Origin: an uncultured Thermoleophilia bacterium
GTDB taxonomy: Bacteria; Actinomycetota; Thermoleophilia; UBA2241
Direction of reading: 5' to 3'
Assembly (NCBI GenBank): GCA_963699725.1
Contig: CAVOVA010000007.1
Coordinates: forward strand, 29,108 to 93,107
Length of the DNA: 64,000 nt
The position numbers and the translations under genes are program-made. Shown piece after piece: positions 8,012-50,634 of the stretch. Every line of letters begins with the position of its first letter. The first letter of the stretch is position 1. The notes below the pieces were generated by a model. The model ran no database searches and was not told the origin of the DNA. It worked only from the letters and a program-made list of their open reading frames with translations.

Positions 8012-8397
8012 GGTCGCCAGTCCGTCGCCCCGGTGCTCGGTAGTGGCGCCCGCAAAGCCCACTTCATGCCCCCGGAATGGCTGGTCTACGCGCCCAAGAC
8101 TACCCCCCCATGAAGACGGCTAAAAGGGGTAGATGCGCCTATGAGTTGCCACCGTTGACGACGTTGGCCGTCCAATTCGTCACCGCAGCACCCTCCTTCG
8201 AGGCTGAGCGGGACGCGCGACGTCGTTTCGAGCCTGCGGGCACTCAAGCGTAGCCAGAAATGGCAACAGTAGCGCGTGCACTGCCAGCGCATCCGCGTCC
8301 CCGATGCGCGGCGCGCAAGAGCCGGACGACAGGGTCGCGGTGTTCCCCGGGATGCCGCGCGCCAGAGCAGGCGACGCGACGGCCTTCACCCCTCGAT

Positions 8398-26456: not shown

Positions 26457-26473
26457 GGCCCTGCCCCGAGCGG

Positions 26474-27562
26474 CTACCGGGCCCGCTGCGCGGCGGTGCG
26501 CCAGGCGCCTCTCAGCACGGCGAACAGCGGCGCCGGGAGATGCGCCTTCAGCCACTTGCCCGGGTGCAGGCGGCGGGCCACCACGCCGGCGAGGATGTCG
26601 AGGCGGTGACGGTTGCGCCACAGGTACTCGCCCCAGCCGTATCCCTGCATGCAGCGGGCGCCGCGGCGCCGCCCGACCAGCGGCATGTACTCGGCGGCGC
26701 GCACGAAATGGGAGCGCCACAGGCGACGCAGCCGCGATGGCTCCACGGCGAGGCGCTCGTAGAGCAGGAGCGCCTGATTCATGCCGGTGATCGTGATGGC
26801 CGGCCAGTCGGTGAGCCATTCCTGTCCACCCTGCCCCATCAACGCGCACGGCTGGGCGATGTAGTAGCCTGCTCTGCCGGCCATGGCGTGGGCGAGGATC
26901 TTCACGTGCGGGAACAGGTCGTCGAGCGACGTGTCGGCCGCCGACACCATTGGGGAGTCGCTCATCCGCAGCAGGCCGGCGCAGCGTTGCCACTCCGTCC
27001 GCCGAAACACGCTGGAGAGGATCGACGTGTTGACTTCCACCGCATTGGACGTGCGCAGGTCGAAGATGTGCTCCCAGGAGTCAAGCCGCCTGCTCTCGGG
27101 CTCGCGCACGACGCACTCGTCGATGCTGGGCAGCCGCCCGGACCCTTCGTCGCGCAGGAACTCGTCGCGGACCGCCATCCGAGCGGTGAAGTAGTTGACA
27201 TAGAAGTAGTCGATCTCGCCGTGGGCCAGCAGGGCCTGGGTGATGGCCTGCAGCCCGCCGTCGAGCACGAGATCGTCATCCCCGAGCACCCACGCGTACT
27301 CACCCGAGGCTCGTTCGACGGCCAGGAGGAAGTTGCGACTCCCCACGTTCTCGTCGTTGCGGAAGTACCGTATCGGATAGATCGCCGAGGCGGTCGCGAC
27401 CACCGCCGGCGTGGCGTCGGTCGATGCGTTGTCCGAGACGACGATCTCCACCCGCTCGCCGAACGCCGCGCACTGCCGGCACAGTGACTGCAGCATCGGC
27501 TCGAGGAGCGAGGCGCGATTGTACGTGGGCACGCACAGCGAGAGCAGGGGATCGGCGCTCAC
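26474..27562 (-). CDS. Glycosyltransferase, GT2 family
   Basis: LSLCVPTYNRASLLEPMLQSL....VEIVVSDNASTDATP is a GT2 signature, followed by a DDD motif (VLGDDDLV). GTG 27562 is in a GTGA overlap with the wzt stop. Confidence 0.8.
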   Translation of the reverse strand: MSADPLLSLCVPTYNRASLLEPMLQSLCRQCAAFGERVEIVVSDNASTDATPAVVATASAIYPIRYFRNDENVGSRNFLLAVERASGEYAWVLGDDDLVLDGGLQAITQALLAHGEIDYFYVNYFTARMAVRDEFLRDEGSGRLPSIDECVVREPESRRLDSWEHIFDLRTSNAVEVNTSILSSVFRRTEWQRCAGLLRMSDSPMVSAADTSLDDLFPHVKILAHAMAGRAGYYIAQPCALMGQGGQEWLTDWPAITITGMNQALLLYERLAVEPSRLRRLWRSHFVRAAEYMPLVGRRRGARCMQGYGWGEYLWRNRHRLDILAGVVARRLHPGKWLKAHLPAPLFAVLRGAWRTAAQRAR

Positions 27563-28887
27563 GTTCCATCACCCGGCGCCGGGGCCGTCAGCTCGTCCTC
27601 CATCACGTCGGTCTCCCAGGCCAGGCGCGGCCGGATGGCGCCGATCCAGGGCCCGGTGTACTCCTGGCGCATCGCGCCGGTGTCATGCACCGTGAACGAC
27701 ACGACTTCGTCGGCGCGCACCTGCGGCCGCGAGCTGTCCTTGAGCACCCACGCGCTGACGCGATACATGCCGTCGTTGAGGAAGTTCCCGGGCACCGTGC
27801 AGACGGCGCGATACAGCCCGACAGGGTGCGGCCGGCACGACCAGCCGTCGTCGGCGAGGGCCGCCGACGGCGAGCTGTTGGCCGCGAAGACCGTGACCCC
27901 CGACTTGTCGTGCAGGTGCACCGCGGCCGAGAGCCGGTTGCCTTCTGCGAAGTTCCAGAACCAGATCTCGATCTGGATCTCCTCGTCGATGTCGACGTCC
28001 GCAGTGCTCTCGTCGCGCTGCGTGACGCGCACGGCATGCAGCTTGACCTGTTCCCCGCCCGGAGCCTCGTCCGGGTCGCTCCACAGCACGCTCCCCGAGA
28101 CGTCGAGCCCTCGCGTGATGTACTCGCCGACGACGTCGCTCGTAGGGCCGGAGGCGACCACCCTCCCCGCGTCGAGCAGGACGGCGCGCGAGCAGAGCGT
28201 CGAGATCGCCCCCATGTTGTGGCTCACGAACAGCACGGTACGGCCCTCGCTCGCGACGTCGCCCATCCTGCCCAGGCACTTCTTCTGGAACTCGAGGTCG
28301 CCGACGGCCAGGACCTCGTCCACGATGAGGATGTCGGGCTCGAGATGCGCCGCCACGGCGAACGCCAGACGCACGTACATGCCGCTGGAGTAGCGCTTCA
28401 CCGGCGTGTCGAGGTACTTGCCGATCTCCGAAAACGCGACGATGTCGTCGAACTTCTCGCGCACCTCGGAACGACGCATGCCGATGATGGCGCCGTTCAT
28501 GTAGATGTTGTCGCGCCCCGTGAGCTCCGGATGGAAGCCCGTGCCGACCTCGAGGAGGCTGCCGACGCTGCCGACCAGCTCGGCTCTCCCCTCCGTGGGA
28601 TGCGTGATGCGGGTGAGCACCTTGAGCAGGGTGCTCTTGCCGGCGCCGTTGCGGCCGATGATGCCGACCCGGTCCCCTGCCTGCACGTCGAACGAGACGT
28701 CGCGCAGCGCCCACATCAGCTCGGTGCGGCCGCCGGTAGAGGCGCCGCGGTGCTTGAGCCGGCGGAGAGGTGCAGCGGCCAGGTTGCCGAGGGCATCGCG
28801 CAACGTGGGGTTGTTGTCTTTGATGCTGCCGATGCGGTAGCACTTGCCCAGGCCCTCAATGGTGACGACGGTCTCGGGCATGCTCAC
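27559..28887 (-). CDS. wzt: Polysaccharide ABC exporter ATP-binding protein with a C-terminal glycan-binding (Wzt_C-like) domain
   Basis: Walker A GRNGAGKST, signature YSSGM, and Walker B ILIVDEVLAVGD. About 190 extra C-terminal residues are predicted to be all-beta (VKLHAVRV...IEIWFWNF...YRAVCTVPGNFLNDGMYRVSAWV). Confidence 0.85.
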   Translation of the reverse strand: MSMPETVVTIEGLGKCYRIGSIKDNNPTLRDALGNLAAAPLRRLKHRGASTGGRTELMWALRDVSFDVQAGDRVGIIGRNGAGKSTLLKVLTRITHPTEGRAELVGSVGSLLEVGTGFHPELTGRDNIYMNGAIIGMRRSEVREKFDDIVAFSEIGKYLDTPVKRYSSGMYVRLAFAVAAHLEPDILIVDEVLAVGDLEFQKKCLGRMGDVASEGRTVLFVSHNMGAISTLCSRAVLLDAGRVVASGPTSDVVGEYITRGLDVSGSVLWSDPDEAPGGEQVKLHAVRVTQRDESTADVDIDEEIQIEIWFWNFAEGNRLSAAVHLHDKSGVTVFAANSSPSAALADDGWSCRPHPVGLYRAVCTVPGNFLNDGMYRVSAWVLKDSSRPQVRADEVVSFTVHDTGAMRQEYTGPWIGAIRPRLAWETDVMEDELTAPAPGDGT

Positions 28888-29771
28888 ACCACGTCCGCGA
28901 AGGTGCGTTCCATGCGCTTGAAGTAGAACAGCCCTCCGATCAGCAACGCCAGCACCACCACGACGGAGATGGCCATCGTGTAGCTCGGTGGCTGTTCACC
29001 GAGGATCGCCCAGCGGAAGCCCTGGATCACGCCGACCATGGGGTTCAGCGAATACAGCGTGCGAAGGATCCCTTCAGGCACCTTGTCCACCGGGTAGATC
29101 ACCGGACTGAGGTACATCAGGAGCTGGACGAGGAAGGGAACGATGTACTGAATGTCGCGATAGAGGACGTTGAGCGCGGCGAGCCAGAGCGACACCGCCA
29201 GCGCCGTGGCCAGACAGAACAACGTGAGCAGCGGCAGCCACACCATCGTCCAGGCGTAGGGTACGCCGAAGATCGCCATGAGGACCAGCAGCATCACGAA
29301 CGCGATGACGAAGTCGACGACACCCGCGAAGATGCTCGAGATCGGGATGACGAGCCGGGGGAAGTACACCTTGGTCAGGAGATTCGCCCTCGCCACCAGG
29401 CTGACGCTCGCGCGATTGATACCCCCGGCGAAGAGGTTCCAGGGCAGCAGAGCAGTGTAGCTGAAGACGGCGTACGGTACGTCACTGCCCGACTGGACGC
29501 CGAGGAGCATGCCGAAGACCAGGGTGAACACGACCATGGTGACCAATGGATTCAGCACCGCCCAGGCCACGCCGAGGACGGCCTGCTTGTAGCGGACGAG
29601 CACATCGCGCCAGGAGAGGAAGAAGAGCAGCTCGCGGTAGCGCCACAGCTCGCCCAGCTCCAACGCCGACCACCCCGTCCGGGGTCTGATCACCACACCC
29701 GGGCGCTTCGGTGTGGGCGTGTATGCGGCGGGTGTGTCGGTCGGCACGTCCACGTCCGACGCCCTACTCAC
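28884..29771 (-). CDS. wzm: ABC-2 type polysaccharide exporter permease
   Basis: The protein is 295 aa with six hydrophobic helices and the N-terminal LWRYRELLFFLSWRDVLVRYKQAVLGVAWAVLNP motif typical of Wzm/TagG permeases. It overlaps wzt. Confidence 0.8.
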   Translation of the reverse strand: MSRASDVDVPTDTPAAYTPTPKRPGVVIRPRTGWSALELGELWRYRELLFFLSWRDVLVRYKQAVLGVAWAVLNPLVTMVVFTLVFGMLLGVQSGSDVPYAVFSYTALLPWNLFAGGINRASVSLVARANLLTKVYFPRLVIPISSIFAGVVDFVIAFVMLLVLMAIFGVPYAWTMVWLPLLTLFCLATALAVSLWLAALNVLYRDIQYIVPFLVQLLMYLSPVIYPVDKVPEGILRTLYSLNPMVGVIQGFRWAILGEQPPSYTMAISVVVVLALLIGGLFYFKRMERTFADVV

Positions 29772-30756
29772 GAAGCGCCCGCATCCAGTCGTACTCCGCC
29801 GAGAGGCCCTCGAGAAGGCCGACGGCGGGAGCGTAGTCGATGAGCTCGCGCGCCCTCGTCAGGTCGGCCCAGGTGTCCTGGACGTCGCCGGCCTGCTTCG
29901 CCTCGACACGGATGTCCGGCCGCGTCCCGGCCACGTCCCCGAGCATGTCGAGCACGTGAGTGAGCGACACGCGGGACCCGCCGCCCACGTTCAGCACGCT
30001 GCCGGGCGGTGCGGCGCCGGCACGAACGAGGGCCTCGACGATGTCGGCGACGAACGTGAAGTCACGCGTCTGGCCACCGTCGCCGTACACGACCAGCGGC
30101 TCGCCGGCGAGAAGCGCGCGGAGGAAGATGTTGAACGCCATGTCTGGCCGCTGTCGCGGGCCGTAGACGGTGAAGAAGCGCAGCGACACCGTCGGCACGC
30201 CGCGGCACGTCCAGTAGAGCTGCGCGAGATGCTCGCCGGCGAGCTTGGTCACTCCGTACGGCGAGATCGGCCGGCAGACCGCGTCCTCTTGCAGGGGCAG
30301 CGTGGGGCTGTCACCGTACACGGACGACGAACTGGCATAGATGACCCGCTCGACCGCGGACTCACGACACGCCTCGAGCACGAGTTGCGTGGCGAGCACG
30401 TTGTTCTCCGCATAGACGCGAAAGCTCTGACCCCAGCTCGCCCGCACTCCCGCCTGGGCGGCCAGATGATAGACCCGGTCGCATCCCCGGACCAGCTCTT
30501 CGAGCCTCGTCGCGCCGTCGCTGCCCGCCTCGGTCGCCAGCGAGTGGACATCAGTCTCGACGAACGTGTACCGGGGGTCGGCGAGGGCGAGGGTCAGATT
30601 GGCCTCTTTGAGCGCGCGCGGATAGTAGTCCTCGAACGAATCCACGCCCACCACCTGGGCGCCGTCGCGCAGAAGACGCTCCACAAGATGAGACCCGATG
30701 AAGCCGGCCGCGCCGGTGACCAGCACGCGCGATCCGGAGAGATCCACTGAATCCAT
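29764..30756 (-). CDS. NAD-dependent nucleotide-sugar epimerase/dehydratase (extended SDR)
   Basis: VLVTGAAGFIGSHLVERLL (GxxGxxG) and the SSSSVYG...Y..TK catalytic motif are present. ATG 30756 was verified. It is the first gene of the minus-strand exporter operon. Confidence 0.85.
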   Translation of the reverse strand: MDSVDLSGSRVLVTGAAGFIGSHLVERLLRDGAQVVGVDSFEDYYPRALKEANLTLALADPRYTFVETDVHSLATEAGSDGATRLEELVRGCDRVYHLAAQAGVRASWGQSFRVYAENNVLATQLVLEACRESAVERVIYASSSSVYGDSPTLPLQEDAVCRPISPYGVTKLAGEHLAQLYWTCRGVPTVSLRFFTVYGPRQRPDMAFNIFLRALLAGEPLVVYGDGGQTRDFTFVADIVEALVRAGAAPPGSVLNVGGGSRVSLTHVLDMLGDVAGTRPDIRVEAKQAGDVQDTWADLTRARELIDYAPAVGLLEGLSAEYDWMRALRE

Positions 30757-30987
30757 CACTGCCCACAGCCCCGTCGATCGTTGCCCGCAGGCCCCGTCGG
30801 GTGCCTGTCCGAGGAGTCGGCCACGACGACACGCCTCAGCCGACCCGACTCGCCGACATTGTACCAGCCCGCTGCCCTCGCTGAGCCGGCTCGCGACACC
30901 CTGTGTAGACATCCACGGCAACGCGCGCTCCTGCCGAGCAGGCCGGCCACAGGTATCATGTGCGGGCGGCAAGCCTCGGGAGGGCGG
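30757..30987. promoter_or_regulatory. Divergent intergenic region between the ABC-exporter operon and the AsnB-like array
   Basis: Inferred from gene geometry only. Confidence 0.3.
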
Positions 30988-32727
30988 ATGTCCGGACTCA
31001 TAGCTGTCTGCGTGCGCGACGCGGCGACCGATGGTCGTCTCCGCGACGTCCTCGAGGGCTGCGCCCGCCGCCTCTCACCTGACAACATCTCTCCCCGCCC
31101 CCCCTCGACCATGCTGTCGCCGGGTATCGGGTTCGCTGTGACGAACCCTGCTCCGGGCCTCTCTCTCGACGCCAACGGCGTCTGCCTGGGAGCCGTACAG
31201 GACGACCCGGCGACCTGGTCGCGCGTGGCGTCGCCGGTCCCCGACGGTTCCTACGTACTTCTTCGGCACAGCGACGATGCCCTTGAGCTGATCAGCGACG
31301 CGCTGGCGTCGCGGACGGTCTGGTACGTTCACACCGCCGAACTCTTCCTCGCCTCGACGTCCCAGCGGGCCCTCGTCTCTCTTCTCGGCGACTTTCAGCC
31401 AGATCGTGCGGCAGTGCTCTGGATGGCCACGTCGGGAACGCTGGGGCCATCGGCCTCGTGGGATCGCCGATTGAGCAGACTCCCGGGGGCGTCGACGCTG
31501 CGGCTCGATCGCCGGTCGTGGCGCCTGGACGTCACCAGCGAGCCGGTGACGTTCGAACCGGCGCGCCGCAGCGACGAGGAGCACGTCGCCGAACTGGGTG
31601 CGGCGATCCTCGACTCCTGCGCCGACCTGCACGTCGATCTGGCGGACTGGGTCCTGCCTCTATCGGGGGGGATGGACAGCCGGGCGCTTCTTCTGGCCCT
31701 TCTTGAGACGGGGAGGCGCCCGCGCTGCGTCACCTGGGGCCTGCGCAGCGCCGTCACGGATCCCGCCAACGACGCGGCCGTCGCCAGAGTGCTCGCCGAC
31801 ACGACGGGCGTGGAACACCTCTACTACCCCACCGACCACTCGGAGGAGGACGTCGGCGCGGTCCTGGATCGCTTCCTGGTCGCCGGCGAGGGACGCAGCG
31901 AGGACTTCGCCGGGTACACCGACGGCCTCGCCACGTGGAAGCAGCTCTTCGAATCCGGCGTCGCAGGCGTCATTCGCGGTGACGAGCCGGGGTGGGGATA
32001 CCGCACCTATCACTCCGAGAGCTACGCCCGGCGCCGCGTCCACCTCCGAGTCCTCGCCGACTACCCCCCCTCCCATCTCATCCATCAGCTGGGACTGGAA
32101 CCGCAGCCAGTCCCGTCCCAGCTGACGCGCCACGAGCGGGAGAGCCTCACGACCTACCGTGACCGGATCTACGAAGCCTATAATCTCCCCACCTTCTTCG
32201 CCGCCCTGAACGACGTCAAGACGCCATACGTGGAGATCGCCAATCCCTTCCTCACCCGCAGGGTCGTGAGCGTCGTGCGCTCGCTACCGGACCATCTCCG
32301 CGAACATCGCCGCGCATTCGCCGCCTTCGTCCGCGCCTACGGACCCGATGTGCCCTTCGCCACCAAGGCGGCGCCGGCCGAGCCCAGCGAGTACCTGGCG
32401 CGCCCGGGTCTGGTCACCGAGGTTCGGGAAGAGCTCGAGTCGAGCCGGGCGGAGAGTGTGCTGGACCGGGGCGCCCTCGATCGCCTCTGCGCCGCTCTCG
32501 ACGCCTCCCCGAGGTTCGACGCACGGCGCGGGCTGCGAGCGGCCGCACGCAAGGTGATCCCCGACGAGCTCGCGCGCCGGCTGCGACCGAACGCGGCCAT
32601 CCTTCTGAGTGCACGCGAGCTCGCCTTTCGCGTCTGCATCGCGAGCCGCATGGCGACGATGCTCACCGCCGACGCCGCGGCGAGCCCCGCATGGCGGGGC
32701 TCGGAGACGCGGCCGGAGGGCCACTGA
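30988..32727 (+). CDS. Asparagine synthetase B-like adenylating enzyme, paralogue 1 (no N-terminal Cys nucleophile)
   Basis: ATG 30988 follows GGGAGGG. The N-terminal domain has an Ntn-amidotransferase-like pattern (DGSYVLLRHSDDALELISDALASRTVWY...LASTSQRALV). The PP-loop LSGGMDSRALL is intact. The protein starts MSGL, not MCG. Confidence 0.75.
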   Translation: MSGLIAVCVRDAATDGRLRDVLEGCARRLSPDNISPRPPSTMLSPGIGFAVTNPAPGLSLDANGVCLGAVQDDPATWSRVASPVPDGSYVLLRHSDDALELISDALASRTVWYVHTAELFLASTSQRALVSLLGDFQPDRAAVLWMATSGTLGPSASWDRRLSRLPGASTLRLDRRSWRLDVTSEPVTFEPARRSDEEHVAELGAAILDSCADLHVDLADWVLPLSGGMDSRALLLALLETGRRPRCVTWGLRSAVTDPANDAAVARVLADTTGVEHLYYPTDHSEEDVGAVLDRFLVAGEGRSEDFAGYTDGLATWKQLFESGVAGVIRGDEPGWGYRTYHSESYARRRVHLRVLADYPPSHLIHQLGLEPQPVPSQLTRHERESLTTYRDRIYEAYNLPTFFAALNDVKTPYVEIANPFLTRRVVSVVRSLPDHLREHRRAFAAFVRAYGPDVPFATKAAPAEPSEYLARPGLVTEVREELESSRAESVLDRGALDRLCAALDASPRFDARRGLRAAARKVIPDELARRLRPNAAILLSARELAFRVCIASRMATMLTADAAASPAWRGSETRPEGH

Positions 32728-33737
32728 TGTCCGGGCTGATCGTCGCCTGCGCGCGTCCGGGGACCGAGCTGCCCTACTCGGCCGACGATCTGCGGCGCTG
32801 CGCCGCCCGCCTCTCGCCCGACAACCTCACCCCGCACGCCCCGCGGCTGCTGGCGGACCCGGGGCTGATCGCCGCCGTGGTCAACCCCATGCCCGACCTC
32901 CCGCGCGCGCCGGGCGCGGTCTGCCTCGGCGGGCTCGTCGGCGCCCACGACGGCTGGGACGCCACCGGGTCGCGGCGACCGGACGGCTCCTACGCCATCT
33001 GCCGCTTCGACGCCGAGCGCCTGGAGCTGGTGACCGACAACCTCGCCTCCAGGGCGCTGTGGTACGTGCTCCGCGGCGACGTCCTGCTCGCCTCCACCTC
33101 GCAGCGGGCGCTGGTCTGCCTGCTCGGCGACCTGCGCCTCAACGACGCCGCCGTCGCCTGGCTGGCCTCGAGCGGCACCCTGGGGCCCGACAACGCCTGG
33201 GACACGCGGCTGCGCCGGGTGCCGGCGGCGACGGTGCTCTCGCTCGACCGCCGCGCCTGGACCCTGAAGCAAGCCACGGAGTCGCTCGAGCACGAGCCCG
33301 AGCCGCTCCCGGACGCGGTCCATCTGCAGCGCTGGCGCGAGGCCATCCTCGAGACCTGCGCGGAGCTCGACGTCTCCCTCGACACCTGGCTCCTGCCGCT
33401 CTCCGGCGGCCTCGACAGCCGCACGCTGCTCGCCGCCCTCGTCGCCGGCGGGCGCCGCCCGCGCTGCGTCACCTGGGGCCTGCGCCGCTCGCTCGAGGAC
33501 CCCGAGAGCGACAGCGTCGTGGCGCGACGTCTGGCCGCGTACTACGGGGTCGACCACTCGTTCTTCGCGACCGACCCCGGCGACGAGCCGCCGCGCGTGC
33601 TGATCGACCGCTTCCTCGTCGCCGGCGAGGGGCGCACGGACCAGATCGCCGGCTACCTCGACGGGCTCGCCATCTGGAAGACGCTGTTCGACGAGGGCGT
33701 GACCGGGGTCATCCGGGGCGACGAGCCGGGGTGGGGC
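32639..33737 (+). repeat. Direct repeat copy A (1,099 bp; 3' end of paralogue 1 plus 5' 1,011 nt of paralogue 2)
   Basis: Compared by eye and through identical translations in three frames with 34378-35476. The offset is 1,739 bp. One mismatch was found (33452 G versus 35191 C, synonymous). Confidence 0.9.
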
Positions 33738-34466
33738 GAGGACGCCTGTTTCTCCGCGTCCGACGTTCGACGCGGCAACCGCATCGAGGCGATCTCCGAC
33801 TTCCCGTCGGGGCACCTCATCCGGCAGCTGGGACTCGCACGGCAGCCGCTGCCGGGATGGGTCGGGCAGCGGCCCGGTGAAAGCCTCGTCCTCTACGACT
33901 GCAGGCTGACCAGCAGCTACGAGTTCCCTCTCGATCTCGGCCCTCTCAACGACATCAAGTGCGCCTACGTCGAGGTCGCCAACCCGTTCCTCGGCGACCG
34001 GGTGGTGCGGATGATGCGCGCCCTCCCGGAACATCTTCGCCGAGAACGAAAAGGGTTCACTGCCGTGGTGGACCGTCTCGGCCCTCCCATACCGGCTGCG
34101 AAGCGCTCGGCGCTCGCGGGTTTGACGCCGGCCCTGCACGGCCCGCCCTTCCTCGATGAGATGCTCACCGAGCTGGCGTCGAGCGACGCAGAGCGCATCT
34201 GCGAGCGACGCGCACTCGACCTGGTCGCCGACGATCTCCGGCGCGTGAGGCCGACGTCGGCGAGCCGCAGTCTGCGTCACGCCGCGCGTACCGTCATGCC
34301 CCGACGCGTCAGGGCGTCCCTCAGGCTGAGTCCGAAGGCGAGTCTCGCCACCGCGCGCCTGGCGTTCCGGCTCGTGCTCGCGAGCCGCATGGCGACGATG
34401 CTCACCGCCGACGCCGCGGCGAGCCCCGCATGGCGGGGCTCGGAGACGCGGCCGGAGGGCCACTGA
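32727..34466 (+). CDS. Asparagine synthetase B-like adenylating enzyme, paralogue 2 (Cys-less)
   Basis: It overlaps paralogue 1 by TGATG and starts MSGLIVAC. The PP-loop is LSGGLDSRTLL. The first 337 codons are identical to paralogue 3. Confidence 0.75.
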   Translation: MSGLIVACARPGTELPYSADDLRRCAARLSPDNLTPHAPRLLADPGLIAAVVNPMPDLPRAPGAVCLGGLVGAHDGWDATGSRRPDGSYAICRFDAERLELVTDNLASRALWYVLRGDVLLASTSQRALVCLLGDLRLNDAAVAWLASSGTLGPDNAWDTRLRRVPAATVLSLDRRAWTLKQATESLEHEPEPLPDAVHLQRWREAILETCAELDVSLDTWLLPLSGGLDSRTLLAALVAGGRRPRCVTWGLRRSLEDPESDSVVARRLAAYYGVDHSFFATDPGDEPPRVLIDRFLVAGEGRTDQIAGYLDGLAIWKTLFDEGVTGVIRGDEPGWGEDACFSASDVRRGNRIEAISDFPSGHLIRQLGLARQPLPGWVGQRPGESLVLYDCRLTSSYEFPLDLGPLNDIKCAYVEVANPFLGDRVVRMMRALPEHLRRERKGFTAVVDRLGPPIPAAKRSALAGLTPALHGPPFLDEMLTELASSDAERICERRALDLVADDLRRVRPTSASRSLRHAARTVMPRRVRASLRLSPKASLATARLAFRLVLASRMATMLTADAAASPAWRGSETRPEGH

Positions 34467-35476
34467 TGTCCGGGCTGATCGTCGCCTGCGCGCGTCCGGG
34501 GACCGAGCTGCCCTACTCGGCCGACGATCTGCGGCGCTGCGCCGCCCGCCTCTCGCCCGACAACCTCACCCCGCACGCCCCGCGGCTGCTGGCGGACCCG
34601 GGGCTGATCGCCGCCGTGGTCAACCCCATGCCCGACCTCCCGCGCGCGCCGGGCGCGGTCTGCCTCGGCGGGCTCGTCGGCGCCCACGACGGCTGGGACG
34701 CCACCGGGTCGCGGCGACCGGACGGCTCCTACGCCATCTGCCGCTTCGACGCCGAGCGCCTGGAGCTGGTGACCGACAACCTCGCCTCCAGGGCGCTGTG
34801 GTACGTGCTCCGCGGCGACGTCCTGCTCGCCTCCACCTCGCAGCGGGCGCTGGTCTGCCTGCTCGGCGACCTGCGCCTCAACGACGCCGCCGTCGCCTGG
34901 CTGGCCTCGAGCGGCACCCTGGGGCCCGACAACGCCTGGGACACGCGGCTGCGCCGGGTGCCGGCGGCGACGGTGCTCTCGCTCGACCGCCGCGCCTGGA
35001 CCCTGAAGCAAGCCACGGAGTCGCTCGAGCACGAGCCCGAGCCGCTCCCGGACGCGGTCCATCTGCAGCGCTGGCGCGAGGCCATCCTCGAGACCTGCGC
35101 GGAGCTCGACGTCTCCCTCGACACCTGGCTCCTGCCGCTCTCCGGCGGCCTCGACAGCCGCACGCTGCTCGCCGCCCTCGTCGCCGGCGGCCGCCGCCCG
35201 CGCTGCGTCACCTGGGGCCTGCGCCGCTCGCTCGAGGACCCCGAGAGCGACAGCGTCGTGGCGCGACGTCTGGCCGCGTACTACGGGGTCGACCACTCGT
35301 TCTTCGCGACCGACCCCGGCGACGAGCCGCCGCGCGTGCTGATCGACCGCTTCCTCGTCGCCGGCGAGGGGCGCACGGACCAGATCGCCGGCTACCTCGA
35401 CGGGCTCGCCATCTGGAAGACGCTGTTCGACGAGGGCGTGACCGGGGTCATCCGGGGCGACGAGCCGGGGTGGGGC
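34378..35476 (+). repeat. Direct repeat copy B (3' end of paralogue 2 plus 5' 1,011 nt of paralogue 3)
   Basis: See copy A. Identity breaks at 34377/34378 and at 35476/35477. Confidence 0.9.
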
Positions 35477-36217
35477 TACAGTGCCGTCCACTCGGAGACG
35501 TACGTGAGGCGCAGAGCGCACTTCGAAACGGTTCCGGACTACCCGCCGAACCATCTGATCCGGCATCTCGGACTCGCGCCTCAACCCGTTCCGGACTGGA
35601 CGCGGAGGCGGGCCGGCGAGTCACTCGTCCACTTGCGGAACCGGCTCTACGAACGTCACTCGCTCCCCGTGCACCTGTCTCCGCTCAACGACGTCAAGTG
35701 CGCCTACGTCGAGATCGTCAACCCGTTCCTCGGCGATCGCGTCGTCAGAGTCGCCCGAGAGCTTCCGGAGAAGCTCAGCAGTCAACGTGACGGCTACAAA
35801 GCAGTGGTATCCGCGCTCGGTCCCGACGTGCCGACGGCCAAGCACTCGGCGCTCGTCGGCTCAAGCCGGCTGCTGTCGTCCAGCCAGGCCGTCATCGAGG
35901 AGCTTCGCAGAGAGCTGTCGTCGACCGACGCCGACAGGATCTGTGAGCGACGGGGCCTCGATCGCGTCGTCGCCGGGCTCCGCAAGCCGGGATCCGCTCC
36001 AGCGCGCCGGCGCCTCAGAAACGGCGTCCGCGCCGTGGTGCCCAGACGAGTGAGGGTGCTCGTCAATCCGGATCCAGCGTTGACCCTCTCCACCTTCGGC
36101 TTGGCTCTGAGGCTGCACATGGCCAGCCGGATGGCCGCCATGCTGACTGCCGACGCAGCCGCCCTGCGCGCTCGAAACGGTGTGCCTAGTCCACCGCCCC
36201 ACGCGACCGGCGCCTGA
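34466..36217 (+). CDS. Asparagine synthetase B-like adenylating enzyme, paralogue 3 (Cys-less)
   Basis: It overlaps paralogue 2 by TGATG. The N-terminal 337 aa are identical to paralogue 2, and the remainder is divergent. The PP-loop is LSGGLDSRTLL. Confidence 0.75.
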   Translation: MSGLIVACARPGTELPYSADDLRRCAARLSPDNLTPHAPRLLADPGLIAAVVNPMPDLPRAPGAVCLGGLVGAHDGWDATGSRRPDGSYAICRFDAERLELVTDNLASRALWYVLRGDVLLASTSQRALVCLLGDLRLNDAAVAWLASSGTLGPDNAWDTRLRRVPAATVLSLDRRAWTLKQATESLEHEPEPLPDAVHLQRWREAILETCAELDVSLDTWLLPLSGGLDSRTLLAALVAGGRRPRCVTWGLRRSLEDPESDSVVARRLAAYYGVDHSFFATDPGDEPPRVLIDRFLVAGEGRTDQIAGYLDGLAIWKTLFDEGVTGVIRGDEPGWGYSAVHSETYVRRRAHFETVPDYPPNHLIRHLGLAPQPVPDWTRRRAGESLVHLRNRLYERHSLPVHLSPLNDVKCAYVEIVNPFLGDRVVRVARELPEKLSSQRDGYKAVVSALGPDVPTAKHSALVGSSRLLSSSQAVIEELRRELSSTDADRICERRGLDRVVAGLRKPGSAPARRRLRNGVRAVVPRRVRVLVNPDPALTLSTFGLALRLHMASRMAAMLTADAAALRARNGVPSPPPHATGA

Positions 36218-37385
36218 GGCGGCGGCGCAGCGCAGTCGAGACGGAGCCGACGAGCGGCGCCGGATCATCGAATGCGATCACGGCATCGCTGCGGATGCGC
36301 GCCAGAGGCGCGAGCCAGTCGCCCAGGCCGAGCTGCCCCGCTCGCCACTCGTTCATCGAGTCCCTGGCCTCCCGCAGCAGATCACTCCACGCGACTCCAT
36401 CCACCTGCCGCGGCCGCTCGATGACTTCGCCGGCGGCATCGCGATAGGCGATCTCGCTCAGATTGACGCCCGCCGCCGTCGCAAGACCCGCCCACAGGCC
36501 GTGGCGAGCGTTGATCTCGATGAACTTGAGGCGGCCGTCTCTCGCGTCGCGCTTGAACTCCACATCAGAGACACCTCGATAGCGGAGATGCCCGAGGAGC
36601 TGGAGCGTGGCCTCCGCGACCTCGTCGGACCATCGGCTCTCCGCGAGGCGGGTGTTGCCGAAGCCGCGCGGATGCTGCCGCAGCTTGCGCCCGGTGAACA
36701 CCGCGAGCGGGCGACTGGCGGCGTCGTGGTAGGTCGCGGCGAAGTAGACATCGTCATCGCCGCCGGGGACGATCTCCTGGAGCATGAGGGGCCCGCATCC
36801 CCGGACGCGCCGGCAGGCGAGCTCCAGGTCTTCGCGGGATTCCACGACCAGGAGCTTGAGTCCCAGGGCGCGCTTGAACGCGAGCGGGACCGCGGGCTTG
36901 AGTACGGCCGGATAGACCATCGCCGCGGACACGGACTCGAGATCCTCCGCGGAGCGAAGGAACGCTGTCGCCGGCGTGGCCAGACCGGCCTGCTCGGCTG
37001 CCCGCACCTGGTGCTCCTTGTCGGCCAGGTGCCGCATCGCTTCCCAGCGACAGACGGGCAACGTGAAGGTCCCGTCCAGCCGCGCCGCCTGTCGCGAAAC
37101 GCTGGCCACGAAATCGTCCTGTGCCGGCAGGACGACGGTACCTCCAGGGAGCCGGGTCGAGAGCGCGAGCATGTCGTCGACGAAGCCGTCTTCGTCGTAG
37201 TGCGGATCGGCGCAGCGCACCGCGTGCGCGTATCGCGAGGCGAAACCGAGCGCATCGGTCTGGCAGTCGACGGCCACGACCGGCACACCCAGCCTGCCCA
37301 GATCGCGTACGACGGTGAGACCCGTGCCGTTGCTCACCCCGAGCACGACAGCAGGGCGGAGGCCACCCCGCCCGTGGCGGGCCAT
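36186..37385 (-). CDS. ATP-grasp domain carboxylate-amine ligase-like protein
   Basis: PAVVLGVSNGTGLTVVRDLGRLGVPVVAVD is a pre-ATP-grasp Rossmann-like N-terminus. It is followed by YPAVLKPA, MLQEIVPGGDD and the SDVEFKRDARDGRLKFIEINAR core. The start is uncertain (ATG 37385 preferred; 37502 and 37634 are also open). Its 3' end overlaps paralogue 3 by 32 nt, convergently. Confidence 0.7.
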   Translation of the reverse strand: MARHGRGGLRPAVVLGVSNGTGLTVVRDLGRLGVPVVAVDCQTDALGFASRYAHAVRCADPHYDEDGFVDDMLALSTRLPGGTVVLPAQDDFVASVSRQAARLDGTFTLPVCRWEAMRHLADKEHQVRAAEQAGLATPATAFLRSAEDLESVSAAMVYPAVLKPAVPLAFKRALGLKLLVVESREDLELACRRVRGCGPLMLQEIVPGGDDDVYFAATYHDAASRPLAVFTGRKLRQHPRGFGNTRLAESRWSDEVAEATLQLLGHLRYRGVSDVEFKRDARDGRLKFIEINARHGLWAGLATAAGVNLSEIAYRDAAGEVIERPRQVDGVAWSDLLREARDSMNEWRAGQLGLGDWLAPLARIRSDAVIAFDDPAPLVGSVSTALRRRLRRRSRGAVD

Positions 37386-37738
37386 ACGACCGTTCACGAT
37401 CGTGACCACGATGTGACGAGATCTTCCATAGGGACGCCTCCGCGCCGGCTTGTGCAGCACGTCGACGGCCCATCGCCCGGCCCGGCGTCCGCACGCGGTC
37501 ATCCATCCGGCTGTGGCCGTAGAGTACGCTATCTCCCCCTCCACGGTCACGCGGCGGGACGCGTGCTGCGCCGCCTCAGGACCCTCGACGGCGACCGGCG
37601 CCCCGCTGCTGCCGCGCGGCCGCCGTTGGCTCACGGTCGCACCCGGGGCACGGCCGGCCGCAACGGGCTCTGGACCATCCTTGACCGCGACGCGGCCTTG
37701 TCACCACACTTACGCGACACAGCCGAAGGAGCCATCTC
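37386..37738. promoter_or_regulatory. Divergent intergenic region between the ATP-grasp gene and AsnB-like paralogue 4
   Basis: Inferred from gene geometry. A strong GAAGGAG lies 7 nt before ATG 37739. The extent depends on the ATP-grasp start. Confidence 0.3.
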
Positions 37739-39538
37739 ATGGCCGACGTGATCATCGCCTGCCCTCGCAGCGGTTCCCAAGCAGGCGCGGCGGAGCGCCT
37801 GCGGAATGCAGCCCTGCGCCTCGCGCCGCCGGAGTTGCCGACCCGCGAGCCACTGCTGCTCGAGTCCGGCGGCGTCGTAGCCGCCGTCGCGAACCCGACG
37901 GAAGAGGGCGTGTGGCTCCACGACGGCCGTGAAGACGCCACGGTGCGCGGCGCGGTGTGTGTCGGCGGCCTCTTCGGCACGCCCGGAGCATGGTGGCTGC
38001 CGGGTTCGGAAGCCCCTGACGGCACTTACGCACTGGCCAGGTGGGACGCGCGCACGGTCGAGCTCGTCGCCGACACGTGCGCCACTCGCACGCTCTGGTA
38101 CACGGTCTCGGAGGACGGCTTCTTCGCCTCCACATCGCAGCGGGCACTGGTCACTCTGCTCGGTGGCTTCGACCTGCTGCCGGAGGCCGTCGCCTGCTTC
38201 CTCTCCACCGGCACGCTGGGGCCGGACGCTTCGTGGGATGCGCGCATACGCCGCGTGCCGCCGGACGCGCTCGCCGTACTGGACCGCGCGGCCTGGCGCG
38301 TCTCGGTCCACGAGTCCACCTGGCAGTTCACACCTCTTCCCGGCGACGATCGCGCTCAAGTCGCCCGTCTCCGGGACGCCATCGCCGCCACCTGCGGCTC
38401 CCTCAACGTCGACCTCGAGCGATGGGTCCTCGCTCTCTCGGGCGGGTGCGACAGCCGTGCCCTGCTCGCCTTTCTGGTCCAGAACGGGCTCCGCCCGCGC
38501 TGCGTCACCTGGACGACGCGTGCTTCGCTGCGCAAGCCCCTCTCCGACGCTTCGATCGCCCGGCACCTCTGCCGCCGCTACCACGTCGAGCACGAACTGC
38601 TGTTTCTCGATGACGGCCCCGACCTGGATACCACAGTGTCGCGCTTCGTCGCCGCCGACGAGGGGCGCAACGACGAGATCGCGGGCTACCTCGACGGATT
38701 CGCGCTCTGGCGCGGTCTCGTTGCGAAGGGCGCCGAAGGACTCATCAGGGGAGATGAGTCGTTCGGCCCACGGTCGCGCCCGATGGCCGCGGAGAGCGGC
38801 CGAAGGCAGGTCGGGGGCGCAACGCCGGCCGACTATCCCGAGAGCCATCTCCTGCGCAGTCTCGGGCTGGTCGAGCCGACGTGGCCGCAGCGCCTCCAGA
38901 GAACCGAAGGGGAAGACCTCCGCGACTACCGAGCGCGCATCAGCCAGCAGGGCTTCGTGCCCATCGTCCTCGCAGGGCTCAACGGCCCGAAGGCCCGCTA
39001 CCTCGAGATCGTCAATCCTCTGCTGTCCCGAGCGGTGATGGGCGCCGTCCGCGCGTTGCCCACGGAGATGCGAGAGTACTCCCGGGCGTTCGGGAAGATC
39101 GTCGACGGGCTCGACCGCACGGTGCCGTATGCGCGATCCTCCTCCACAAGATCACCCTCGGACCTCTTCGCCTCGCACGAGTTCGCGGACGTCGTCGTCC
39201 GTGAGCTCACCTCGGGGGACATCGAGCGTGTGCTGCCCGGAGACGCCGCCCTCCGCGTGCTCGCTTCACTGACCGTGCCGAGGGCCGGCCCGACTGGTCC
39301 GAAGGCACGTACGAAGGCTCTCCTGAAGAGAGTCGGCGTCGCCCTCCCGATCCGCCTGACCGACCGCATCCACCCCCGCTACTTCGGGCCGAATCGTCTG
39401 TCTCCGGCGAAGCTCGCCTGGCGAGCCCTCCTGGCCAGCCGGACCATCTCGTTGCTGGAAGACGATGCCGGAGCCCTCGCTCGGTCTGGAGGCGCGACGG
39501 CGCTCCCGGGACCCAGGAGTCCGAGCGCACCCCGCTGA
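37739..39538 (+). CDS. Asparagine synthetase B-like adenylating enzyme, paralogue 4 (Cys-less, most divergent)
   Basis: It starts MADVIIAC after GAAGGAG. DGTYALARWDARTVELVADTCATRTLWY...FASTSQRALV is present, and the PP-loop is LSGGCDSRALL. It is collinear with paralogues 1-3 over the full length. Confidence 0.75.
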   Translation: MADVIIACPRSGSQAGAAERLRNAALRLAPPELPTREPLLLESGGVVAAVANPTEEGVWLHDGREDATVRGAVCVGGLFGTPGAWWLPGSEAPDGTYALARWDARTVELVADTCATRTLWYTVSEDGFFASTSQRALVTLLGGFDLLPEAVACFLSTGTLGPDASWDARIRRVPPDALAVLDRAAWRVSVHESTWQFTPLPGDDRAQVARLRDAIAATCGSLNVDLERWVLALSGGCDSRALLAFLVQNGLRPRCVTWTTRASLRKPLSDASIARHLCRRYHVEHELLFLDDGPDLDTTVSRFVAADEGRNDEIAGYLDGFALWRGLVAKGAEGLIRGDESFGPRSRPMAAESGRRQVGGATPADYPESHLLRSLGLVEPTWPQRLQRTEGEDLRDYRARISQQGFVPIVLAGLNGPKARYLEIVNPLLSRAVMGAVRALPTEMREYSRAFGKIVDGLDRTVPYARSSSTRSPSDLFASHEFADVVVRELTSGDIERVLPGDAALRVLASLTVPRAGPTGPKARTKALLKRVGVALPIRLTDRIHPRYFGPNRLSPAKLAWRALLASRTISLLEDDAGALARSGGATALPGPRSPSAPR

Positions 39539-47223: not shown

Positions 47224-47232
47224 TCGCGCGTC

Positions 47233-48588: not shown

Positions 48589-48592
48589 GCTC

Positions 48593-50490: not shown

Positions 50491-50634
50491 GCTCTCTCCC
50501 GTCCTCCCCGGTCCATTCGCGAACCGCGCGACCACTCACCCGGACACGACTCCCGTGGATTCTACGCCAACCGCCCGCCGTGCTGACAACGGAGCGATCT
50601 CCCGGGCCGCGGGCGGAGGTCTCGCTCTCCCGCG

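Follow-up and report, generated by a model that had tools for sequence, protein, structure and literature searches.

What could four adjoining genes for asparagine synthetase B (AsnB)-like proteins, none with a catalytic cysteine, contribute to a glycan locus? We addressed this question in a window of 64,000 nt (the whole stretch of DNA analysed) from a soil actinobacterium (Thermoleophilia). A previous sequence-only reading had described four full-length paralogues, the first three chained by TGATG overlaps, and their coordinates, reading frames and overlaps were all verified:

30988–32727, plus strand, c1, putative Cys-less AsnB-like amide synthetase of clade A1 (579 aa, start MSGL)
32727–34466, plus strand, c2, the same, of clade A2 (579 aa, mosaic)
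34466–36217, plus strand, c3, the same, of clade A2 (583 aa; examined by AF2 model, Foldseek and Pfam)
37739–39538, plus strand, c4, the same, of B type (599 aa, start MADV)

The four ORFs are intact (4/4) and a GGAGG-type Shine-Dalgarno sequence lies 5–9 nt upstream of each start; the stop/start overlaps leave one base common to c1/c2 and to c2/c3, and c4, transcribed divergently from the ATP-grasp gene at 36186–37385, has a separate start region. Pairwise identity is 50% for c1/c2, 80% for c2/c3 and 38–41% for c4 against c1–c3, and no transmembrane segments were predicted in any of the four products.

Profile search, the model of c3 and Foldseek agree in placing these proteins in the AsnB superfamily with an intact adenylation site, as had been proposed. 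With the Pfam Asn_synthase model, c1–c3 reach the cut-off (22.8–27.5 bits vs 21, the highest being c3) and c4 falls below it (13.5 bits). The AF2 model of c3 (pLDDT 92.7) has a complete two-domain AsnB fold, with whole-chain Foldseek matches to TsnB9 (6e-17), beta-lactam synthetase (BLS; 1e-15), AsnB (5e-13) and the carbapenam synthetase CarA (4e-12), at TM 0.5–0.63. At the sequence level, likeness to characterised AsnB-type enzymes is marginal: the family profile matched the PDB sequences of TsnB9 with E 9e-5 and of BLS with E 0.023, and c1–c4 scored far under the cut-offs of curated models for AsnB, WbpS-type amidotransferases and lasso cyclases. They belong to a distinct, unnamed and uncharacterised branch of the superfamily, which amounts to at least 770 clusters when grouped at 50% identity and occurs in Actinomycetota and Bacteroidota, always in glycan loci.

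The N-domain pattern PDGSY...LEL..D.LASR.LWY...ASTSQRALV and the PP-loop LSGG[MLC]DSR, both reported before, occur in all four paralogues and are invariant or nearly so among 47 family members, in which the PP-loop reads L-x-L-S-G-G-x-D-S-R without exception. Residues D262, Y310, D312, R330, E385 and R393 are likewise invariant, K411 is conserved in more than 90% of the members, and c1–c4 contain all seven; catalytic equivalences beyond the PP-loop would rest on such motifs. Conservation in the N-domain equals or exceeds that in the synthetase domain: 16 of its roughly 190 residues are invariant, vs 20 of about 390.

Is the glutaminase nucleophile truly missing? Among the 120 homologues listed none has Cys2, and almost all have Ser or Ala at this position, which bears out the absence noted earlier. 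An upstream start restoring Cys2 was considered for c1, which is preceded by in-frame 'MCG' codons in the region separating it from a divergent gene:

29764–30756, minus strand, UDP-glucuronate 4-epimerase-type SDR, divergent from c1 (phmmer against PDB)
30757–30987, no strand assigned, divergent intergenic region with two conserved boxes (alignment of seven orthologous intergenic regions)

Orthologues exclude this start, as they have MCR or MCT instead, and one of them has a stop codon between that site and MSGL. The 'MCG' codons are spurious and lie within a conserved TATCAT promoter-like box (GGTATCATGTGC, 30952–30963); this and a second box, CATTGTA at 30857–30863 (TACAAT on the minus strand), are probably the -10 elements of the c1 and epimerase promoters, respectively. 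Lacking both the Ntn cysteine and the motifs that bind glutamine, the enzymes would use an amine from a source other than glutamine.

As for the carboxylate, the best clue to uronates is the adjoining epimerase. It matches UGAepi from B. cereus (6zl6/6zla/6zld/6zll; E 6.5e-79) and MoeE5 (6kv9; E 9e-69), shows about 50% identity to BcUGAepi as estimated by eye, and contains the motif YGPRQRPDMAF, which keeps the Arg aligned to the carboxylate-binding Arg185 (PMC11519531, PMC12338863, for the UGAepi structures and the role of this residue). We surveyed 88 related metagenomic or MAG loci (GC 0.32–0.71), which held glycan genes throughout, in agreement with the glycan setting first proposed: GT4 and GT2 glycosyltransferases, a phosphoglycosyl transferase, Wzm/Wzt, a Wzz-kinase and acetyltransferases recur. 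The commonest neighbour of the family is an epimerase of the UDP-GlcA 4-epimerase type: in 21 of 53 high-GC loci it lies 0–200 bp from a family member, and among the high-GC loci flanked by 6 kb or more it abuts one in 13 of 21. Among low-GC (Bacteroidota) metagenomic loci it is nearby in only 1 of 20, so the carboxylate may differ across the family; in Algibacter mikhailovii, the genes after a family member encode an epimerase that shares the motif (YGPWGRPDMA) and two nucleotide-sugar dehydrogenases.

The uronate connection had originally been drawn from a distant gene described as AlgD-like:

9611–10903, minus strand, nucleotide-sugar 6-dehydrogenase of UDP-glucose dehydrogenase type (Pfam UDPG_MGDP_dh N, central and C domains; TIGR03026, 390 bits)

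This gene, whose profile matches correct the AlgD assignment, probably accounts for the supply of UDP-GlcA; it lies outside the conserved cassette, 20 kb from the array, in what looks like a separate glycan cluster with a Wzz-kinase gene. Neither a homologue of it nor any nucleotide-sugar 6-dehydrogenase within 10 kb was found in the 88 related loci. The link to uronates is strengthened by the epimerase and weakened as far as the dehydrogenase is concerned.

Fold, motifs, absence of the nucleophile, gene neighbourhoods and paralogue history are what the analysis establishes. For the role of c1–c4 we lean, with slight preference, towards ATP-dependent, glutamine-independent amidation of galacturonate carboxylates in a surface glycan; substrate, nucleophile, order of steps and stage of modification are what we infer. 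The proteins would be soluble amide synthetases whose PP-loop domain adenylates a carboxylate, most likely C6 of a galacturonate derived from the UDP-GalA made by the adjacent epimerase, and the acyl-adenylate would be attacked by an amine to give the amide. This amine, which may be free ammonia, an amino acid or some other compound, would be taken up from solution or delivered by a partner. The galacturonate would belong to an intermediate, nucleotide-linked or undecaprenyl-linked, of a glycan assembled in the cytoplasm and then exported through the Wzm/Wzt ABC transporter encoded nearby. The gene between c3 and c4 could bring another kind of carboxylate-amine ligation, via an acyl-phosphate, into the same pathway:

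36186–37385, minus strand, ATP-grasp carboxylate-amine ligase (Pfam CPSase_L_D2, 25.7 bits; AF2; Foldseek)

Pfam, 620 homologues and the model (pLDDT 93.0) concur on this assignment, made already in the sequence-only reading; Foldseek retrieved PurK, biotin carboxylase, CPS, L-amino-acid ligase and PurT (about 1e-18 to 1e-19). The gene is convergent with c3, which it overlaps by 32 nt. We read it as COG3919-type from the source names of its relatives, some of which are called 'D-aspartate ligase'. A cassette of A-type paralogue, ATP-grasp gene, B-type paralogue and epimerase recurs elsewhere: A-type and B-type pairs flank the ATP-grasp gene in loci L005, L008, L018 and L021, and 'AD' N-termini are paired with 'AG/SG' types in these four and in L006.

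The paralogues fall in three separate clades, each with orthologues elsewhere: A1 (c1; loci L001, L004 and L011–L014), A2 (c2/c3) and B (c4; loci L005, L074 and L075). The array contains a near-identical direct repeat:

32639–33739, plus strand, 1101-nt repeat, copy 1 (copy 2 at 34378–35478; period 1739, two mismatches)

Each copy spans the tail of one gene (c1 or c2) and the first 337 codons of the next (c2 or c3), so that residues 1–337 of c2 and c3 are identical. Beyond them, c2 residues 338–550 are orthologous to the L004 copy at 7406–9124, with 68% identity to copy A2 vs 47% to copy A2'; the c2 tail is 97% identical to that of c1, and c2 is identical to the public protein P0004. The repeat is a gene-conversion tract, and c2/c3 are an old duplicate pair recently homogenised over those 337 codons. 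The array therefore has three sequence types across its first two-thirds, and the identity of each paralogue sits in the C-terminal third. The claim of a four-fold array holds for the number of full-length genes, but overstates a set of three old lineages. Given their age and their lineage-specific C-terminal thirds, each probably handles a different amine or position, and the A1, A2 and B paralogues appear to be non-redundant; the products could be different substituents or one chain.

The sequence-only reading also knew of no described module of this composition. The kind of sugar tailoring is already described, since in moenomycin it is MoeH5 that joins NH3, Gly, Ser, Cys, Ala or a C5N unit to the carboxyl of galacturonate as an amide (PMC8778134). 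There too an AsnB-like enzyme is found beside a UDP-GlcA 4-epimerase (MoeE5, as named among the PDB matches), and the function proposed for c1–c4 parallels that of MoeE5/MoeF5/MoeH5. Uronamides are also made by WbpS, WbqG and PGN_1234 (PMC7468200). What had not been described is the c1–c4 subfamily and its multi-paralogue cassette.

The remaining genes of interest in the window are:

26474–27562, minus strand, GT2 glycosyltransferase (Pfam)
27559–28887, minus strand, Wzt ABC ATPase with Wzt_C domain (Pfam)
28884–29771, minus strand, Wzm ABC-2 permease (Pfam)
23692–25188, minus strand, conserved membrane protein, about 10 TM segments predicted, no Pfam match (the L005 homologue has Wzy_C)
25185–26477, minus strand, soluble 430-aa protein, conserved, no Pfam match
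17993–20913, plus strand, PGA_cap/CapA-type protein and PaaK/F390-type adenylating enzyme

The GT2, Wzt and Wzm genes (26474–29771) are the export/assembly part of the same syntenic block as c1–c4, and the order GT2-Wzt-Wzm-epimerase, three AsnB-like genes and ATP-grasp is repeated in the Thermoleophilia MAG locus L004. The two genes at 23692–26477 are conserved and co-occur with this block. The best NCBIfam match of the PGA_cap/CapA-type protein, far under the cut-off, is the MslH peptide C-terminal epimerase; homologues of the genes in 17993–20913 adjoin family members in other loci, and these are possible accessory genes.

The sequence-only reading had described four full-length paralogues of asparagine synthetase B (AsnB) type, the first three chained by TGATG, with an ATP-grasp gene between copies 3 and 4. 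This arrangement is borne out: the four ORFs (c1 to c4) are intact, a one-base TGATG overlap joins c1 to c2 and c2 to c3, and the product of the intervening minus-strand gene has an ATP-grasp fold in its AF2 model. The genes are as follows.

30988–32727, plus strand: c1, intact ORF, 579 aa
32727–34466, plus strand: c2, intact ORF, 579 aa
34466–36217, plus strand: c3, intact ORF, 583 aa
36186–37385, minus strand: ATP-grasp ORF, convergent with c3
37739–39538, plus strand: c4, intact ORF, 599 aa

A GGAGG-type ribosome-binding site precedes all four starts, and the G+C content of the window is 0.67–0.74. Pairwise identity is 80% for c2 and c3, 50% for c1 and c2, and 38–41% for c4 against the rest; the closest named relatives are annotated as "hypothetical protein [Thermoleophilia bacterium]".

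Curated profiles barely recognized these proteins. With the Pfam model Asn_synthase (PF00733, cut-off 21 bits), c1, c2 and c3 scored 22.8, 23.8 and 27.5 bits, respectively, and c4 13.5 bits. Scores with the AsnB equivalog TIGR01536 (23.8–27.5 bits, cut-off 267.1) and with TIGR03108, the WbpS/WbqG family, which was matched by c4 alone (21.3 bits, cut-off 816.9), are far enough under the cut-offs to rule out membership in either family. The best NCBIfam match was NF033561, the lasso-peptide macrolactam cyclases (37.7–53.7 bits, cut-off 300), which aligned to the central third only of c1–c4, and a profile built from 47 family members gave marginal matches to PDB sequences (TsnB9, E 9e-5; beta-lactam synthetase, E 0.023). 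The AF2 model of c3 (pLDDT 92.7, pTM 0.92) was matched by Foldseek, over the whole chain, to TsnB9 (E 6e-17, TM 0.62), beta-lactam synthetase (E 1e-15), E. coli AsnB (E 5e-13) and carbapenam synthetase (E 4e-12), as well as to human ASNS, with E values ranging to 2e-10; TM values against TsnB9 and the beta-lactam and carbapenam synthetases were 0.49–0.63, with a sequence identity of just 11–17%. Because the model aligns along its whole length with AsnB-fold structures while the curated profiles barely score, c1–c4 are, as judged from predicted structure, genuine two-domain members of the AsnB superfamily that form a deeply diverged branch. The superfamily placement proposed from the sequence is thus borne out by the structural comparison, while the PF00733 cut-off was reached by c1–c3 but not by c4.

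The absence of the catalytic Cys, also noted in that reading, extends to the whole family. Proteins c1–c3 begin with MSGL and c4 with MADV, and nearly all of the 120 homologues retrieved start with M/V/L-[S/A]-[G/D/N]-[L/F]-[I/V]; Cys was found at residue 2 in none of them, Ser or Ala occupying this position in nearly all. A conserved upstream start that restored Cys2 would have reversed this picture, and there is an in-frame MCG 10 codons 5' of c1. Nevertheless, orthologues have MCR or MCT at this place, related locus L011 has a stop codon between MCG and MSGL, and the real starts are all preceded by a Shine-Dalgarno sequence; the MCG is misleading because its bases are part of a conserved TATCAT box. 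This is the second of two boxes, kept in seven orthologous loci, within the divergent intergenic region (30757–30987) that separates c1 from an epimerase gene (29764–30756, minus strand), and the two boxes are probably the two -10 promoter elements.

30857–30863: box CATTGTA (TACAAT on the minus strand)
30952–30963: box GGTATCATGTGC

With no Cys2 among the homologues and the MCG start ruled out, a glutamine-dependent route is taken from the sequences to be excluded family-wide.

Conversely, the adenylation apparatus appears to be intact in all four copies. The PP-loop reported for them (LSGG[MLC]DSR) is present in c1–c4, and its residues S226, G227, G228, D230 and R232 are invariant across 47 members of the family, as are D262, Y310, D312, R330, E385 and R393; K411 is more than 90% conserved in the same set, and c1–c4 possess all of these residues. 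From the order of motifs, and not from an alignment, K411 would correspond to the AsnB lysine and the "IRGDE" motif to the SGEGSDE loop. The N-domain pattern pointed out in the sequence-only reading likewise occurs in all four copies, and this domain contains 16 positions, many of them charged, that are invariant among the 47 members; R93, E100, D104, R109, Q126, R127, D159 and R161 are among its invariant residues. No transmembrane segments were found in c1–c4.

When 1.84 billion cluster representatives were scanned in full, 770 clusters matched at E ≤ 1e-30, and 1539 matched at the looser threshold of E ≤ 1e-10; the family therefore comprises at least 770 clusters, with clustering at 50% identity. 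Members come from high-GC MAGs of Thermoleophilia and other Actinomycetes, and from Bacteroidota (Bacteroidia, Chitinophagaceae and the isolate Algibacter mikhailovii), and are named in their sources "hypothetical protein", "asparagine synthase-related protein" or, automatically, "asparagine synthetase B". The literature searched contained no relevant account of Cys-less AsnB proteins from polysaccharide loci and no paper on the family; for archaeal threonyl-mannuronate, a lead that was followed, the text consulted does not name the enzyme. The kind of system is already known, namely AsnB-fold enzymes that amidate uronates, with or without an ATP-grasp ligase. What is undescribed within the literature searched is the Cys-less subfamily, together with its conserved multi-paralogue cassette including a UDP-GlcA 4-epimerase.

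A neighbour-joining tree with 97 members grouped c1, c2/c3 and c4 in three separate clades (A1, A2 and B, respectively), each with orthologues from other assemblies, and the three copies from related locus L006 were spread over three deep clades. Within the array, a direct repeat of 1101 nt (32639–33739 and 34378–35478, 2 mismatches, period 1739) makes the tails of c1 and c2 alike, and likewise the first 337 codons of c2 and c3. Residues 338–550 of c2, in turn, are 50% identical to c3, 68% to the copy at 7406–9124 of L004, a syntenic Thermoleophilia MAG locus, and 47% to the L004 copy at 9130–10887; the N-parts of these two L004 copies are 77% identical. Because the N-parts of c2 and c3 are near-identical, while their C-terminal parts are about 50% identical and orthologous to different L004 copies, the sequences point to an old c2/c3 duplication whose N-terminal two-thirds were recently homogenized by gene conversion. 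Paralogue identity, on this sequence comparison, is carried by the C-terminal third. An analysis of clade-specific positions yielded just 21 scattered positions, a few of them beside Y310/D312 and K411, a signal too weak to define a specificity pocket.

Locus L091, a close relative assembled from short reads, contains c1 and c3 only and is devoid of the 638 nt specific to c2. This is possibly due to repeat collapse, which would give the same picture, and L091 is therefore not counted against c2. The more distant L004 contains three distinct A-type copies, one of them orthologous to the C-part of c2, and for these reasons we treat c2 as real and not as an assembly artefact. Where a B-type gene would be expected, L004 retains a 37-codon remnant (10913–11026) starting with MADLIVACPRE; the B copy was therefore lost there, and the three A copies and the ATP-grasp gene stay.

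We collected 88 related loci and called and clustered their ORFs. Among those long enough to judge, the family is found in polysaccharide loci, in agreement with the glycan-locus setting first proposed. The genes usually seen around it there encode GT4, GT2 and GT1 glycosyltransferases, a phosphoglycosyl transferase, Wzm/Wzt, Wzz-kinase, hexapeptide acyltransferases and beta-helix proteins. No neighbour is more frequent than an SDR epimerase (34 of the 88 loci), and the same ATP-grasp family comes next (17 loci). Synteny with the window is seen in L004 (GT2, Wzt, Wzm, epimerase on the minus strand, three family members, ATP-grasp on the minus strand, ispG), and the order A, ATP-grasp, B, epimerase (minus strand), often with a phosphoglycosyl transferase, recurs in L008, L018 and L021. 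These three loci, together with L005 and L006, contain pairs of A and B genes, the window being A, A, A, B. Accessory genes that recur near family members encode a PGA_cap protein with a weak MslH-like match, a PaaK/F390-type adenylating enzyme, a FemAB-type GNAT, a class I/II aminotransferase, a LarA-like protein and an MBOAT protein with an SGNH partner; these ligase, epimerase and acyl-transfer neighbours are in keeping with a pathway for amino- or hydroxy-acid substituents, although they are no proof of it.

The epimerase preceding c1 gave its best matches to the UDP-glucuronic acid 4-epimerase structures from B. cereus (6ZL6, 6ZLA, 6ZLD and 6ZLL, E 6.5e-79; PDB codes confirmed in PMC11519531) and to MoeE5 (E 9e-69), WbpP and GalE being much weaker (1e-41 or worse). 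It keeps a FFTVYGPRQRPDMAF segment, whose second Arg aligns with Arg185, the residue holding the UDP-GalA carboxylate (PMC12338863). In 21 of 53 high-GC loci, 0–200 bp separate a family member from an epimerase with the same motif; this holds for 13 of the 21 high-GC loci with at least 6 kb of flank. In Algibacter, which has the single-copy form, the genes after the family member encode an epimerase with the equivalent motif YGPWGRPDMA, a second epimerase and two nucleotide-sugar dehydrogenases; in low-GC metagenomic loci the epimerase link is rare (1 of 20). The dehydrogenase at 9611–10903, taken as AlgD-like and uronate-forming in the sequence-only reading, is of the UDP-glucose-dehydrogenase type, lies 20 kb off in a cluster with a Wzz-kinase gene, and has no counterpart in the 88 related loci. 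As these 88 loci are without such a uronate-forming dehydrogenase and the epimerase link is weak in Bacteroidota, one substrate should not be assumed for the whole family.

The ATP-grasp protein has 620 homologues at E ≤ 1e-5, some of them named "D-aspartate ligase" or "ATP-grasp superfamily carboligase" in JGI. Its AF2 model (pLDDT 93.0) displays the three-domain architecture and fold of the superfamily, and Foldseek matched it about equally to PurK, biotin carboxylase, CPS, L-amino-acid ligase and PurT (E around 1e-18 to 1e-19, TM 0.57–0.66). Its only Pfam matches were CPSase_L_D2 (25.7 bits, cut-off 19.8) and ATPgrasp_Ter, and the TupA-like family PF14305 was not among the matches at E ≤ 0.1. 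The model thus presents it as a bona fide carboxylate-amine or carboxylate-thiol ligase, with generic structural matches. Among known enzymes, the C-domain of Campylobacter Cj1438 is an ATP-grasp glycan amidoligase, and in the peptidoglycan cross-bridge the ATP-grasp D-aspartate ligase Asl is paired with the AsnB-type AsnH on one side chain. TupA-like (WemR family) ATP-grasp enzymes from surface-polysaccharide loci have also been linked to amino-acid decoration (PMC13419641). The cassette resembles these systems in having an ATP-grasp gene in a glycan locus and in pairing it with AsnB-type genes, but differs in that its ATP-grasp protein is not TupA-like.

To our knowledge, every characterized AsnB-fold enzyme (AsnB, BLS, CarA, lasso cyclases, TsnB9) adenylates a carboxylate, which is then attacked by a nitrogen nucleophile. 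The most economical reading of c1–c4 would be the ATP-dependent amidation of galacturonate carboxyls, with the nitrogen coming from ammonia or, more likely, from amino acids or other amines. We favour galacturonate amidation because the proteins have no glutaminase, are soluble, belong to a cytoplasmic pathway for an ABC-exported glycan and are coupled to UDP-GalA synthesis. The original interpretation, an array adding amide substituents to uronic acids, was in this respect reasonable, but is unproven.

Uronic acids that bear amino acids or amines in amide linkage occur widely among O-antigens, capsules and archaeal N-glycans, and we know of few cases in which the installing enzymes have been identified (Campylobacter ATP-grasp, MoeH5 and, for plain uronamides, WbpS-type enzymes). 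The moenomycin pathway provides a precedent: UDP-GalA comes from MoeE5, and amides are formed on GalA carboxyls by two AsnB-like enzymes, MoeF5 and MoeH5. As nitrogen donors for the GalA carboxyl, MoeH5 accepts NH3, Gly, Ser, Cys, Ala and the C5N amine/aminocyclopentanedione (PMC8778134). The likeness to c1–c4 is one of proposed function and of context: MoeH5 and MoeF5 are AsnB-superfamily proteins, more than one per pathway, encoded with a UDP-GlcA 4-epimerase, and they convert galacturonate carboxyls of a lipid-linked saccharide to amides, as we propose by analogy for c1–c4. However, moenomycin is a secondary metabolite made by two such enzymes without an ATP-grasp partner, whereas the window would specify an exported cell-surface polymer and has three or four enzymes from the A and B lineages. 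The solved structures closest to the c3 model offer a different comparison. Beta-lactam synthetase (BLS) and carbapenam synthetase (CarA) also have no Cys nucleophile and, having adenylated a carboxylate, form an amide independently of glutamine, but this amide is an intramolecular lactam within a small substrate derived from amino acids, and their genomic context is unrelated; TsnB9, in turn, keeps a glutaminase-type domain and transfers hydroxylamine.

It is possible, though we consider it unlikely, that each paralogue simply uses free ammonia to form the carboxamide (GalAN-type) of one particular uronate residue, with no part for amino acids or chains and with the ATP-grasp enzyme acting elsewhere. 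The single-copy enzymes WbpS, WbqG and PGN_1234 use glutamine-derived ammonia and retain both the glutaminase site and an N-terminal Cys. No amide modification is more common than the uronamides, and these AsnB-type enzymes produce them by amidating uronic acid carboxyls in O-antigen, A-LPS or EPS loci (PMC7468200). A plain carboxamide is also made by MoeH5, and the conservation of the adenylation residues in the four copies is consistent with such a reaction. Nevertheless, the known uronamide enzymes retain their glutaminase domain and sit in TIGR03108 (eps_aminotran_1), while the window proteins have no Cys2 and score there at most 21 bits, that of c4, versus 816.9. Moreover, a single kind of carboxamide would not call for as many as three to four paralogues of old divergence together with a conserved ATP-grasp ligase, and the neighbours (MslH-like epimerase, FemAB-type GNAT, class I/II aminotransferase, LarA-like racemase) hint at amino- or hydroxy-acid building blocks.

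A more elaborate reading, which we regard as doubtful, has the A-type enzymes, the ATP-grasp ligase and the B-type enzyme acting in sequence on one galacturonate to assemble a short, multi-residue amide-linked chain, independently of ribosomes and NRPS, in the manner of the Mur ligases on muramic acid or of the pair formed by D-Asp ligase and AsnH in the cross-bridge. This would amount to a "stem peptide" on the uronate of a wall polymer, and the C-terminal thirds of the paralogues, which are lineage-specific, would pick the residue added at each step. Successive action on one side chain is known for an ATP-grasp D-Asp ligase and an AsnB-type amidotransferase of Enterococcus and Lactococcus, and the recurrence of A, ATP-grasp, B and epimerase in the distant MAGs L008, L018 and L021, the name "D-aspartate ligase" that one source gives to relatives of the ATP-grasp protein, and the PGA_cap protein, with MslH as its best NCBIfam match, in or near several cassettes all agree with successive steps. 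The basis for a sequence of reactions is, however, purely gene order, and this order is not universal: L011 and L036 have A-type copies only, L074 only B-type, and most low-GC loci a single copy. Additionally, "D-aspartate ligase" is an automated name, and the match to MslH is of 54 bits for a cut-off of 700.

Tailoring of peptidoglycan precursors, that is, stem-peptide amidation or extension as by LtsA/AsnB1, AsnH and Asl, with no secondary glycan involved, is very improbable. AsnB-type and ATP-grasp enzymes carry out such reactions in Firmicutes and Corynebacteria, a FemAB-type GNAT occurs near some cassettes, and the block lies among ispG, rseP, dxr and cdsA, which are housekeeping genes for the envelope and for isoprenoids. 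However, the adjacency to ispG is not conserved (L006–L008 adjoin nuo genes), the conserved partners are UDP-GlcA 4-epimerase, Wzm/Wzt, GT2, phosphoglycosyl transferase and a Wzy_C-like protein instead of mur, fem or ddl genes, and the peptidoglycan amidotransferases of the same fold that we know of keep the catalytic Cys.

We give hardly any credit to a peptide or small-molecule product, either from lasso-type macrolactam cyclases acting on a ribosomal peptide or from moenomycin-like phosphoglycolipid tailoring: the lasso cyclases are Cys-less AsnB-fold enzymes and the best-scoring curated family, graspetides are made by ATP-grasp enzymes, and the MoeE5/MoeH5 analogy comes from an antibiotic pathway, but the NF033561 scores of 38–54 bits are far under the cut-off of 300, prenyl-phosphoglycerate synthase and moe-type prenyltransferase genes are absent, and the family is embedded in Wzm/Wzt- or Wzy-type polysaccharide loci among those long enough to judge. 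Lasso cyclases also need a precursor peptide and a leader peptidase/RRE, and no transglutaminase-like peptidase, PqqD-like RRE or conserved small precursor was seen among the Pfam-scanned genes of the window or the annotated related loci, short ORFs being non-exhaustively covered; a lasso or RiPP reading is rejected on the NF033561 score and on the partner genes missing from this set.

The analysis delimits a sizeable, unnamed Cys-less AsnB-like subfamily from Actinomycetota and Bacteroidota that occurs consistently in glycan loci and, in actinobacteria, is physically coupled to UDP-galacturonate synthesis. If galacturonate amidation is the true activity, these genes would mark, at the genome level, soil lineages of which little is known as having acidic wall polymers with amide decoration, and would supply glutamine-independent glycan amide ligases, apparently of different specificities, for glyco-engineering. 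To judge from the c2/c3 mosaic, the specificity module would be the C-terminal third. Stepwise building of a side chain would be considerably more interesting, if true, but we hold it to be a long shot.

Other genes of the window have counterparts in the related loci. The PGA_cap/CapA-type gene at 17993–19525, whose product has MslH (lasso-peptide C-terminal Trp epimerase) as best NCBIfam match with the same 54 bits, is directly followed by a gene for a PaaK/F390-type adenylate-forming enzyme (19522–20913). Homologues of these genes lie beside family members in L018, L020 and L039, and in L041, L046, L048 and L054, and they may belong to the same amide-decoration chemistry. Four genes at 46531–50535 (minus strand) resemble the CDP-3,6-dideoxyhexose pathway (RfbF/G/H/I-like) and encode a nucleotidyltransferase, a 4,6-dehydratase-type SDR, a long DegT-family protein and an FNR-type NAD-binding reductase. 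In L011 and L027, this set of four is found directly 3' of the AsnB-like genes. The gene at 23692–25188 (minus strand) specifies a membrane protein with around 10 predicted TM and no Pfam match, whose homologue in L005 has Wzy_C (O-antigen ligase/polymerase type), and that at 25185–26477 (minus strand) a soluble, conserved protein of 430 aa, also without a Pfam match; both accompany GT2-Wzt-Wzm in L001, L004 and L012. In several related loci, an MBOAT acyltransferase and an SGNH/GDSL-type or other small partner (L006/L007, 1530–2960; L008, 2937–5470; L089, 7162–9493; L090, 11937–16781) adjoin family members, in both Actinomycetota and Bacteroidota, an arrangement suggesting that O-acyl (or aminoacyl) groups are likewise added to these polymers outside the membrane.

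Scans of the window for tRNA genes and with Rfam returned no matches. Two glycan systems seem to adjoin in this stretch. The first (1–25000) includes genes for a Wzz-type tyrosine-kinase, GH5, a phosphoglycosyl transferase, DegT, several GT4 and a UDP-Glc dehydrogenase, and looks Wzy-dependent because of the Wzz-type tyrosine-kinase gene. The second (26474–39538), which holds the AsnB-like array, is ABC-transporter-dependent and is wedged into a conserved ispG-rseP-dxr-cdsA neighbourhood.
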